Part shown: positions 11,754 through 14,709 of the stretch, piece after piece
How positions within the stretch are numbered: the first letter of the stretch is position 1
How the letters are laid out: every line of letters begins with the position of its first letter
Origin: Methylocystis sp.
GTDB taxonomy: Bacteria; Pseudomonadota; Alphaproteobacteria; Rhizobiales; Beijerinckiaceae
Assembly: GCF_051061285.1 (NCBI RefSeq)
Contig: NZ_JBPFEA010000021.1
Span: 9,863 to 33,862, forward strand
DNA length: 24,000 bases
Direction of reading: 5' to 3'
Position numbers and translations under genes: made by a program
The notes under the pieces: model-generated
Seen by the model: only the letters and a program-made list of their open reading frames with translations
Told to the model about the DNA's origin: nothing
The model's database searches: none

Positions 11754-12763
11754 GCTGCTTTCAATCTTTGCAGCCGCTTGACGTTGAAATAGGAGTCGTC
11801 GTCGAAACTGTTCGGCAAGCGATTTTCTCGGAAGGCGACGCAGAGTTCGCGCACCGCGTCCTCGATCGTGCGCCGCGGCTGAAAGCCCAGCGCGCGCGCG
11901 ATCTTGTCCGAATTGATGTGATACGAGCGCAGATCGTCGCTCGGCGTCGTCACGATTTCGAGATCGCCTCGTTCGGGATATTCTTCGAGCACGACCTTGC
12001 GAACCAGTTCGGCGATTTGCATCAAAGAGAGATTTTGATATCCGACGTTGAAGATCTCGCCTTGGATCTTTTCCGCCGGCGCCTCCAGAAACATCTCCAG
12101 CGCGTCGACATAGTCCTGAATATGCAGGTTTGGTCGTAATTGTGAGCCGCCGAAAACCGTGATCCTGTTCTTGTTCACGGCGTGATTGGTGAGAATGTTT
12201 ACGGAGAGATCCAATCGCTGGCGCGGCGCGTAGCCGCACACGGTCGCCGGACGGAAGGTGACGCCCGTGAAACCGTCATCTATGTGTCTGTTGAGCAGCG
12301 GCTCGCACATTCCCTTGTATTTATTGTAAAGCGTCAGGGGCACGAGCGGATGGTCTTCCGTCACCTCGGGTTGGTCGGAGACGCCATAAACCGAAGATGA
12401 AGACGCATAGATGAAGCGCTTGACGCCCGCGTTTTTGGCCGTGAGCACCATTGGCTCGAAGGCCTCCAAATTCACCGAGGTCGAGAGCCGCTCATCGAGT
12501 TCGAAGCTGGCGTCATTGGAGATGCAGGCGAGGCTCAAGAAAGCATCGTGGCCAGCGACCGCAGCGGCGAGCTTCGCTCTGTCGCGTATGTCGCCCTGAA
12601 CCACTGTGAGGTTTGGGTCGTCTTTCGGCAGGAATTCGCAACCGAAATACATGACGTCATACACGGTCACCTTGTAACCAGAGCGAAGGAGCTGTGGAAC
12701 GAGGCGGCTCCCGCAATAGCCGGCCCCGCCTGTAACGAAAACTCGTTCGAACAGTCGCGTCAT
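11750..12763 (-). CDS. extended-SDR NDP-sugar epimerase/dehydratase
   Basis: Motifs VFVTGGAGYCGS, ASSSSVYG and YNKYK (YxxxK). Start reset from 13009 to ATG 12761-12763 (ATGA overlap with the transaldolase stop at 12760). 337 aa. Confidence 0.9.
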   Translation of the reverse strand: MTRLFERVFVTGGAGYCGSRLVPQLLRSGYKVTVYDVMYFGCEFLPKDDPNLTVVQGDIRDRAKLAAAVAGHDAFLSLACISNDASFELDERLSTSVNLEAFEPMVLTAKNAGVKRFIYASSSSVYGVSDQPEVTEDHPLVPLTLYNKYKGMCEPLLNRHIDDGFTGVTFRPATVCGYAPRQRLDLSVNILTNHAVNKNRITVFGGSQLRPNLHIQDYVDALEMFLEAPAEKIQGEIFNVGYQNLSLMQIAELVRKVVLEEYPERGDLEIVTTPSDDLRSYHINSDKIARALGFQPRRTIEDAVRELCVAFRENRLPNSFDDDSYFNVKRLQRLKAA

Positions 12764-13533
12764 CGAACATCCTCGCGTATGTCGTTTACGCCGCCGACGT
12801 CGGCGGTCGATTTTTGCTGCGCGACGTCGATGTCGAATCCCGAAGCCGTCGCGTCGCGATAGAACATTTGCACCGTCTCGAGAGAAAACTGCGTGAGATC
12901 CTTTCCAACCAACTCCAGCTTGGAAAGAATGCCGGGCGTGGCGGTGATGATATGGCAGCCCGCCTCCTGCGCGTGAAAAACGTTTAGCAACTCGCGCGGG
13001 CTCGCCCAAAGCAGCTCCGCTCGCGGGCGCGACGCAAGCGCCGCGCGGCAGGCCTTCATGTGAGGAACAGGATCAACGCCGGTGTCGGCGATTCTCCCGG
13101 CAAAGACCGAAATAATCGCCGGCGTTTCGGGCGCGAGCGCCGCGGCCACGTCGCGAACCTGCTCCACTGTCATGATCGCGGTGACGTTGAGCGTCACGCC
13201 TTCGCTAGACAGCGCGCTCAGAATAGGGCCGGTAAACTCGCCCTTCGTATTAACAACTGGAATCTTGACGTTGACGTTTGGGCCCCAACCGGCAATGACG
13301 CGCGCCTGGCGCGCCATCTCGGAGAGGTCGTCGGCGAATACTTCGAATGAGACGGGACGATCCGGAATCGCCGCGAGCACCTTGCGCGCGAATTTTTCGT
13401 AGTCGGCCACGCCGGCTTGGCGCATCAGCGTCGGATTCGTCGTGAAGCCGACGATCTTCGGATCGCGATACATGGAGATCATTTCTCCAAGATCGGCGCC
13501 GTCGGCAAAGAGTTTAATGAAAATTTTCGGCAT
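12760..13533 (-). CDS. transaldolase-family protein (short FSA/TalC-type)
   Basis: Motifs GFTTNPTL and ISVFAGRI, with the Schiff-base Lys in NVNVKIP (AAG codon at 13264-13266). ATG at 13531-13533 lies 9 nt after the gmhB-like stop. Confidence 0.9.
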   Translation of the reverse strand: MPKIFIKLFADGADLGEMISMYRDPKIVGFTTNPTLMRQAGVADYEKFARKVLAAIPDRPVSFEVFADDLSEMARQARVIAGWGPNVNVKIPVVNTKGEFTGPILSALSSEGVTLNVTAIMTVEQVRDVAAALAPETPAIISVFAGRIADTGVDPVPHMKACRAALASRPRAELLWASPRELLNVFHAQEAGCHIITATPGILSKLELVGKDLTQFSLETVQMFYRDATASGFDIDVAQQKSTADVGGVNDIREDVR

Positions 13534-13542
13534 GAGCGACTT

Positions 13543-14094
13543 TCAGCTGTGTTCTTGTGGCATTGATAATATCCAGTCGGCGGCCTCGGAAAGCGAGCCG
13601 ACAATTCTGTTCGGGCGTTCAGGAGGCTGTTCCGCCGTATAGCCGAGATCTATGAACACGGTGCGGCACCCGGCCGCAGCGCCGGCTTCTACGTCGCTCG
13701 CTCGATCGCCTACCATGAAGCTCTCCTTGAGATCGAGCCCGATTTCGCGCGCCGCTTCCAACAACATTCCAGGCCGCGGCTTGCGGCAGGCGCACGGGCT
13801 CACGTTCGTATGGCAGCAGATCTTTATCGCGTCCAGAGGCATTGCGTGGCGAAGTCGGAGGCTCATTTCATCGACGATCTCACGCGCAACTCGGCCCGCC
13901 CCCACATCTGGCTGGTTTGAAACGACGACGGTGAAGAAGCCTGCTTCCTTCAACCTCGTAACGCACCTCGGCGCGTCCGGATAAATGGCGAATTCCGCGA
14001 GAGTCGTCGGTGCGAAACTGCGGCCTTCGCGAAACTGCGGCACCACGAGAACGCCGTCACGATCCAAAAAAACGGCGCGTCGCGGCCCGAACAT
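13543..14094 (-). CDS. gmhB: HAD-superfamily D,D-heptose-1,7-bisphosphate-phosphatase-like enzyme
   Basis: HAD motif I VFLDRDGVL and motif II VVVSNQ. GmhB-type Zn loop plus Lys in CCHTNVSPCACRKPRPGM. Motif IV GDRASDVEAG. AGGAG RBS upstream of ATG 14092-14094. Confidence 0.9.
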   Translation of the reverse strand: MFGPRRAVFLDRDGVLVVPQFREGRSFAPTTLAEFAIYPDAPRCVTRLKEAGFFTVVVSNQPDVGAGRVAREIVDEMSLRLRHAMPLDAIKICCHTNVSPCACRKPRPGMLLEAAREIGLDLKESFMVGDRASDVEAGAAAGCRTVFIDLGYTAEQPPERPNRIVGSLSEAADWILSMPQEHS

Positions 14095-14103
14095 CCTTGG
14101 CTC

Positions 14104-14709
14104 CTACCACTTCGTCCCACGCGACTGAAGAGCTGGATGAGACACGAGGCAATGCCAGACGACTGCCTGAAACGCTTCGGAAAGCGGCGTCACGCGGCCG
14201 GCGTCGACCTGCGGAATCACGACCACCACGTCGCCATGGGCGCTGGCGTGGCCGTCGGCGCGACCCACGATCGCAAAAACGCGGGCGCCACGCTGCTTTG
14301 CAAGATCGATGGCCTTCACAAGATTGACGCTGACATTGCGAGCCGCGTTCCCGCCCCCAACTGAAAAGACGAGGATTGCGTCGCCGCTGGATAGCCGGCT
14401 GACCTCAAGCCATCCTGTGAAGATCGTATCCCATCCCTCATCATTGGCCCGAGCCGTCAGCTCCGAAACATTGTCCGTCGGCGCATAGGCTTCGATCCCG
14501 CACAATTTTCGAAAATCATTCGCCGCGTGACCACAATTTCCCGCGCTGCCCCCGACGCCCAATAAAAACAATCGTCCCTCGCGCTCACGCAATTGACTCA
14601 ACTCTTGAGCGAGCCGCTCGACCACGCGGGCGTCAAGAAGTCCTGCAACCTCTCGTACCTGCTCCATAAAATCGATGACATGCGACAGGGCGGCGCTCCC
14701 GTTTAACAA
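14104..14709 (-). CDS. gmhA: SIS-domain sugar-phosphate (sedoheptulose-7-P type) isomerase
   Basis: Motifs LLGVGGSAGNCGHAANDF, LTARANDEGWDTIF, VFSVGGGN and LSEAFQAVVWHC match the GmhA/LmbN-type SIS pattern. The ORF-track start is TTG 14707-14709. The first in-frame ATG is 14665-14667. Neither has a clear RBS, so the start is uncertain. Confidence 0.85.
   Translation of the reverse strand: MLNGSAALSHVIDFMEQVREVAGLLDARVVERLAQELSQLREREGRLFLLGVGGSAGNCGHAANDFRKLCGIEAYAPTDNVSELTARANDEGWDTIFTGWLEVSRLSSGDAILVFSVGGGNAARNVSVNLVKAIDLAKQRGARVFAIVGRADGHASAHGDVVVVIPQVDAGRVTPLSEAFQAVVWHCLVSHPALQSRGTKW

Follow-up and report, generated by a model that had tools for sequence, protein, structure and literature searches.

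A transaldolase in a Methylocystis sugar-nucleotide operon as candidate entry enzyme to a nucleotide-activated octose

Introduction

What does a transaldolase make when its gene belongs to an operon for a nucleotide-activated sugar? The question is raised by a minus-strand operon of the methanotroph Methylocystis sp. (NCBI RefSeq assembly GCF_051061285.1, contig NZ_JBPFEA010000021.1, positions 9,863 to 33,862; this whole stretch of 24,000 nucleotides is referred to as the window), in which the genes of an isomerase, a phosphatase and a short transaldolase stand in line. Synthesis of a nucleoside diphosphate (NDP)-octose starting from a transaldolase has been characterised only in antibiotic clusters of Streptomyces. 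LmbR forms octulose 8-phosphate from fructose 6-phosphate (F6P) or sedoheptulose 7-phosphate (S7P) and ribose 5-phosphate, a product that is also within reach of ordinary transaldolases (PMC5854111), and LmbL, LmbM, CcbZ and CcbS convert guanosine diphosphate (GDP)-octose to GDP-lincosamide (PMC12945683). LmbR and CcbR share 69% identity.

The favoured reading, to which a probability of about 0.6 is given, is that the Methylocystis transaldolase makes octulose 8-phosphate for a surface sugar derived from an NDP-octose. This reading rests on the neighbours and not on the transaldolase itself: given the resemblance of the isomerase and of the dehydrogenase/oxidoreductase pair to the octose enzymes of the lincosamide pathway, a C8 compound appears to be the most likely product, in line with the non-standard ketose phosphate proposed in an earlier, sequence-only reading of the window. 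New in this analysis are a side-by-side comparison with Ccb-like proteins, a loop signature for the isomerase and a connection to the bradyrhizose clusters.

Neighbouring enzymes and the case for an octose

Ccb-like comparison proteins were taken from two celesticetin-type clusters found among 401 Streptomyces-like genomes and recognised by their gene content, i.e. PmbA/TldD, transaldolase, DegT, nucleotidyltransferase, GHMP kinase and adenylation domains, together with a Gfo/Idh/MocA protein that has a carrier-domain motif at its C-terminus and lies beside a free isomerase, as described for ccbZ/ccbN.

The SIS-domain (SIS_2) ketose-phosphate isomerase (14104..14709, minus strand, 201 aa) has the GmhA fold in its structure model and scores 48.3 bits against TIGR00441 (cut-off 209.45), so that its earlier naming as gmhA was not borne out; it appears to be CcbN/LmbN-like rather than a GmhA. 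Compared with GmhA, its phosphate loop is rebuilt, Glu65 is replaced by Asp and Gln172 is lost. In GmhA, a short Ser-Thr-Ser-Gly-Asn-Ser stretch holds the terminal phosphate; in its place, cassette and CcbN-like isomerases have Ser-Val-Gly/His-Gly-Gly with an insertion of 4-9 residues. This loop (residues 116-127, 14329..14364, minus strand) is absent from GmhA and from the bradyrhizose-type isomerases and is a derived feature common to cassette and CcbN-like isomerases, independent of any tree. When the 401 Streptomyces-like genomes were searched with the isomerase, the CcbN-like genes came out as its two best matches, and under a mixture model cassette and CcbN-like isomerases formed one group (99/100), apart from GmhA/DiaA, the bradyrhizose-type and other Streptomyces isomerases, with the cassette clade on a long branch beyond CcbN. 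Among loci of at least 12 kb, rebuilt-loop isomerases were found beside a transaldolase (n = 53) and canonical-loop isomerases never (0/19); when loci were chosen by the isomerase alone, a transaldolase lay within 1.5 kb in 12 of 15. Cassette isomerases co-occur with GmhA/DiaA-like genes in genomes. The GmhA-like gene of the Methylocystis genome (L176:1321-2013) was considered as a lipopolysaccharide (LPS) gene and rejected, as it neighbours hypD in an operon for hydrogenase maturation.

The second line of evidence comes from a UDP-glucose-dehydrogenase homologue (6824..8140, minus strand), in which the catalytic Cys is replaced by Asn262 (codon 7355-7357), as in CcbL. It groups with the CcbL-like proteins, and all Cys-less proteins formed one clade (Shimodaira–Hasegawa-like approximate likelihood ratio test, SH-aLRT, 97). 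The operon holds this LmbL-type dehydrogenase together with an LmbZ-type partner, a Gfo/Idh/MocA oxidoreductase (8137..9087, minus strand, 28% identity) that is the LmbZ/CcbZ counterpart. The step of the L and Z enzymes is a 6,8-dehydration, for which a C8 is required. Of all cassette genes, that of the Gfo/Idh/MocA enzyme changes fastest, with about 30-45% identity outside Methylocystis versus 60-88% for its neighbours (L003, L004, L005 and related loci), although a frame slip in the query accounts for part of the difference.

The HAD-IIIA sugar-bisphosphate phosphatase (13543..14094, minus strand, 183 aa) is GmhB/LmbK-like, with identities of 45% (CcbK-like protein) and 30% (E. coli GmhB); the GmhB tree was non-discriminating, with mycobacterial GmhB in the same group as the cassette phosphatase. 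No match to CcbP (GHMP kinase) or CcbO (nucleotidyltransferase) was found in the genome, which has a reversed HldE instead.

Family and active site of the transaldolase

The transaldolase (12760..13533, minus strand, 257 aa; 96% identical to that of M. silviterrae and 94% to that of strain SC2) is a TIGR02134 staphylococcal-type enzyme (TAL_FSA). It passes the TIGR02134 profile with 339.8 bits (cut-off 281.95), stays far below the TalC/FSA cut-off of 246 with 74 bits, and was placed in the TIGR02134 clade with a support of 100/98-99 in both trees. The three motifs noted earlier are present, with the Schiff-base Lys90 encoded at 13264-13266. Asp11, Asn33, Glu64, Lys90, Phe144, Arg147, Ser178 and Arg180 are conserved, and the Asp, Thr-Thr-Asn, Glu60, Lys86, Phe132, Arg135, Ser167 and Arg169 positions of the Thermoplasma enzyme are kept. 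A Glu/Phe pair is the mark of a transaldolase and a Gln/Tyr pair that of an aldolase; PDB entry 4xz9 is a Gln/Tyr double variant. With Lys90 and the pair Glu64/Phe144 (Glu60/Phe132 in Thermoplasma numbering), the Methylocystis enzyme carries the signature of a transaldolase rather than that of an F6P aldolase. Its structure model (predicted local distance difference test, pLDDT, 91.6) is a small TIM barrel that matches small transaldolases; no solved structure was found for the TIGR02134 subfamily, the best PDB matches being 27-28% identical. Models of the cassette enzymes confirmed their folds and nothing further.

The sequence-only reading had called the enzyme LmbR-type. As a statement on its family this does not hold, as the protein is a TIGR02134 member with the canonical Glu/Phe site. 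CcbR-like transaldolases (e.g. L113:7160-7813) have Gln at Glu60 and Leu-Trp at Phe132-133, which departs from both the transaldolase and the aldolase pattern; these changes, a signature defined here from four cluster proteins and not a published one, are absent from the Methylocystis enzyme. The CcbR-like protein scores higher against TalC/FSA than against TIGR02134, below both cut-offs, and in both best trees the CcbR-like proteins were placed with TalC/FSA (bootstrap 87-94), outside TIGR02134. The proposed phylogenetic placement thus gave the TIGR02134 clade and no grouping with the retrieved CcbR-like enzymes, while a sister position of the two was not rejected by the approximately unbiased (AU) test (p-AU 0.242). 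Given the different clade, the missing CcbR-like active-site changes and an identity of 30%, orthology with LmbR is not supported. The transaldolase would rather, by analogy, probably do LmbR's job from another subfamily, and selection of the chain length probably lies with the isomerase and not with a special transaldolase active site.

In two Streptomyces-like genomes (L117, L118), an R-S-O-P-Z-N-M-L-K sugar subcluster 35-58% identical to the celesticetin-type one was observed, accompanied by a glycosyltransferase and an ABC transporter; it possibly belongs to an uncharacterised octose natural product.

Operon layout

Isomerase, phosphatase and transaldolase are present as three minus-strand open reading frames with the spacing read earlier, i.e. 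two gaps of 9 nt and an overlap of the transaldolase stop with the next ATG (ATGA, 12760-12763). They are separate in Methylocystis, and the term "fused" used for the transaldolase applies to relatives only.

All further genes of the operon lie on the minus strand as well. Behind the transaldolase follow two extended SDR epimerases/dehydratases (11750..12763, 43% identical to a bradyrhizose-cluster epimerase and 28% to the CcbM-like protein; 10743..11753) and the reversed HldE (9092..10651), with the nucleotidyltransferase N-terminal and the PfkB kinase C-terminal, apparently colinear with Coxiella CBU0678. Beyond the oxidoreductase and the Cys-less dehydrogenase lie a third extended SDR (5943..6824), an S-adenosylmethionine (SAM) methyltransferase (5282..5938, 44% to the bradyrhizose-cluster enzyme), an NDP-sugar 4,6-dehydratase-like SDR (4253..5248, 36% to Bradyrhizobium gdh), a split transketolase with its N-terminal (3356..4222) and C-terminal subunit (2439..3359), and a Nudix hydrolase (1964..2446) as the final gene. 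No promoter-like site was seen upstream of the operon and no glycan transferase within the window.

Two more SAM methyltransferases are located at positions 202-894 and 1077-1919 of the window, the former sharing about 50% identity with genes in the vicinity of bradyrhizose-type clusters (L149, L185). A DegT-family aminotransferase gene (L189:8283-9464), 42% identical to the CcbS-like protein and followed by a DUF6016 gene, lies about 400 bp left of the window and could be a source of the amino step missing from the operon.

Spread and variants of the cassette

The same order of 13 genes is seen again in Alpha-, Beta- and Gammaproteobacteria and in Nitrospirota; the cassette is common, and databases annotate its genes singly. 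None of the conclusions depends on unpublished genomes. In a neighbourhood census of related loci whose flanks of 10 kb were complete (n = 47), the arrangement proved not to be chance, as the isomerase subfamily and a GmhB-like gene were each present in 39; a kinase was found in 39 as well (26 reversed HldE, 14 GHMP), and the Cys-less dehydrogenase and the Gfo/Idh/MocA gene were both present in 33. In a second form of the cassette (Lawsonia, Rhizobium, Methanoregula), a GHMP kinase and a nucleotidyltransferase accompany the same transaldolase and isomerase; this form is the counterpart of the whole Lmb R/N/P/K/O/M/L/Z set. The copy on a Lawsonia intracellularis plasmid (L083:10706-19057) is of this form and is a complete equivalent of the Lmb sugar set, the aminotransferase excepted. 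Among 97 longer homologues of the transaldolase, 41 were transaldolase-isomerase fusions (39 with the rebuilt loop) and 44 phosphatase-transaldolase fusions.

Proposed pathway

We propose a mobile cassette that would build a nucleotide-activated octose for a surface glycan, with the transaldolase as its entry enzyme. The transaldolase would transfer a three-carbon unit from F6P (or S7P) onto ribose 5-phosphate, and the CcbN-like isomerase would convert the resulting octulose 8-phosphate to octose 8-phosphate. From their families, the reversed HldE and the phosphatase are predicted to lead on to an NDP-octose, the C6-C8 side chain of which may be reworked by the Cys-less dehydrogenase, the Gfo/Idh/MocA enzyme and an SDR, in the manner of LmbL, LmbZ and LmbM. 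More speculatively, the bradyrhizose-like tail, i.e. the 4,6-dehydratase, the split transketolase and the methyltransferase, might branch, extend or cyclise the octose. As a tentative extension, which we consider somewhat doubtful, many bacterial phyla and the Coxiella LPS locus could share a hybrid pathway in which an octose start of the lincosamide type, its transaldolase recruited independently, is joined to the bradyrhizose-type transketolase/methyltransferase tail, yielding an undescribed branched or carbocyclic sugar of at least 10 carbons in cell-surface glycans.

Weighing of the explanations

Several points weigh against the octose reading. The transaldolase is no closer than 30% to the CcbR-like protein and lies in a different clade, its active site is unchanged, canonical and shared with catabolic and housekeeping members of the family, and nothing in its own sequence indicates a C5 acceptor. 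Kinase and nucleotidyltransferase are HldE-type, not LmbP/LmbO-type; AU tests left trees joining the isomerase to the bradyrhizose-type (p 0.245) or to GmhA (p 0.229) unrejected; the co-occurrence counts cover about three lineages, were made on loci selected for their transaldolase, and are not independent; and we know of no octose reported from Coxiella LPS. Much of this would also suit a canonical transaldolase that uses F6P and erythrose 4-phosphate, the latter perhaps made by the split transketolase, and feeds private S7P into a divergent pathway for an NDP-heptose, with later tailoring of the product to a branched or higher sugar. The canonical site, the family members outside cassettes, some of which stand in catabolic or housekeeping settings, the HldE-type enzyme, the GmhA fold of the isomerase and its kinship left open by the AU tests all agree with such a supply, and an own copy could help in a host lineage that often has no transaldolase (PMC3615186). 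It is nevertheless judged the unlikelier account, since it leaves the CcbN-like loop and the CcbL-like dehydrogenase unexplained, and since the gene is kept by hosts that have other transaldolases, namely Labrys okinawensis and Mycolicibacter sinensis. Nor do transketolase and transaldolase look like a feeding pair for S7P, because the two assort separately: no transaldolase accompanies the transketolase and the canonical-loop isomerase of bradyrhizose-type clusters, and in the GHMP form of the cassette the transaldolase mostly stands without a transketolase.

C9-C10 sugars occur in the bradyrhizose system, and together with the long branch of the isomerase clade beyond CcbN they leave some room for another non-standard ketose phosphate; a hexose phosphate as acceptor would yield a nonulose, for instance, and arabinose 5-phosphate an epimer of octulose, so that the backbone would be C9 or a different C8. 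We hold this to be improbable, as no change in the transaldolase sequence points to a new acceptor pocket and the closest characterised partners act on an octose. Least credible of all is a housekeeping pentose-phosphate transaldolase placed in the operon by chance, even though no gene other than that of the cassette carries the transaldolase signature in the genome, which is 99.6% complete. The other PF00923 gene (L002:1525-2202) has the Gln/Tyr pattern of an aldolase; it is a divergent FSA-like gene, patchy among Methylocystis and in a separate clade. The sequence-only reading had allowed that a sole transaldolase of canonical behaviour would speak against a dedicated one, and sole it is; this status does not make it housekeeping, because most relatives do without the gene: 8 of the 78 Methylocystis genomes (6 of the 52 good ones) carry it, and several near-complete relatives have no PF00923 match at all. 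Methylosinus trichosporium OB3b, a related organism, was likewise reported to be without a transaldolase (PMC3615186). In many relatives, moreover, the enzyme is fused to the isomerase or the phosphatase. The transaldolase is therefore accessory, and its dedication to the sugar-nucleotide cassette, as first proposed, is supported.

Significance

If the octose reading is true, a chemistry described from antibiotic clusters would be a common route to surface sugars, and a large part of the TIGR02134 family would be misfiled as pentose-phosphate housekeeping enzymes. The isomerase loop would be a simple marker separating octose from heptose loci, and the Coxiella block CBU0673-0682, including CBU0678 (PMC5843353), would gain a function testable in a harmless host.

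Comparison with known systems

With the staphylococcal-type transaldolases of TIGR02134, the Methylocystis enzyme shares the active site but not the genomic setting. The ADP- and GDP-heptose pathways (GmhA, HldE or HddA/HddC, GmhB) follow the same logic of isomerase, kinase, phosphatase and nucleotidyltransferase with the same folds, whereas all three Methylocystis enzymes lie far below the equivalog cut-offs (145.6 versus 521 bits for the reversed HldE against the kinase-then-adenylyltransferase HldE model), the HldE order is reversed and the operon has its own transaldolase.

The lincosamide GDP-octose pathway (LmbR, N, P, K, O, M, L, Z, S and the Ccb equivalents) resembles the operon in having a transaldolase, an isomerase with the rebuilt loop, a HAD phosphatase (45%), an SDR, a Cys-less dehydrogenase of the same clade and a Gfo/Idh/MocA enzyme. 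It differs in the subfamily of the transaldolase, in its GHMP kinase and guanylyltransferase in place of the HldE-type fusion, and in its aminotransferase, the Methylocystis DegT gene lying just outside the window; Methylocystis, in turn, has an extra dehydratase, transketolase and methyltransferase, and no antibiotic assembly genes.

The LPS block CBU0673-CBU0682 of Coxiella burnetii, compared by gene functions, gene order and three reported residues, holds in the same run a phosphatase, a phosphoheptose isomerase, two epimerases and a reversed HldE, continued by an NADH-dependent dehydrogenase, a UDP-glucose dehydrogenase, an epimerase and a methyltransferase; CBU0675 is presumably its transaldolase. 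P74, G369 and D455 of CBU0678 correspond to P80, G375 and D461 of the Methylocystis reversed HldE, with a constant offset of six. The block was probably acquired from Alphaproteobacteria, and CBU0679, the NADH-dependent dehydrogenase, is closest to Methylocystis sp. SC2 (PMC5423948). CBU0678, with its reversed domain order, is needed for full-length phase I LPS and is distinct from the core-heptose HldE CBU1655; its function was stated as unknown (PMC5843353). The literature ties the block to virenose and phase I LPS, and our search of it found no paper on CBU0675 and none on an LmbN-linked octose O-antigen.

The bradyrhizose O-antigen cluster of photosynthetic Bradyrhizobium (Busset 2016, PMC4743980) was located at L162:8744-18851 and L165:7482-17605 through the gdh primers of the literature, whose sites showed 1-5 mismatches and a spacing of about 400 bp. 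These clusters contain a reversed HldE, a second nucleotidyltransferase, an epimerase, a SIS isomerase, a dehydratase, a split transketolase, a Zn dehydrogenase, one unassigned protein, a phosphotransferase and a methyltransferase, and further copies of the cassette were seen in other Alphaproteobacteria as well as the family to which G061 belongs (L147-L149, L179-L188). Shared with Methylocystis are the reversed HldE (31%), epimerase (43%), dehydratase (36%), split transketolase (38-39%) and methyltransferase (44%); the bradyrhizose cluster lacks the transaldolase, the Cys-less dehydrogenase and the Gfo/Idh/MocA gene, its isomerase loop is of the canonical type, and the second nucleotidyltransferase, the Zn dehydrogenase and the phosphotransferase are its own. 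Of the eleven-gene set around gdh, the Methylocystis operon thus shares six gene types (31-44%) and lacks four, and has extra genes besides; identity of the two is rejected, and the Methylocystis operon is a sister cassette of the bradyrhizose cluster.

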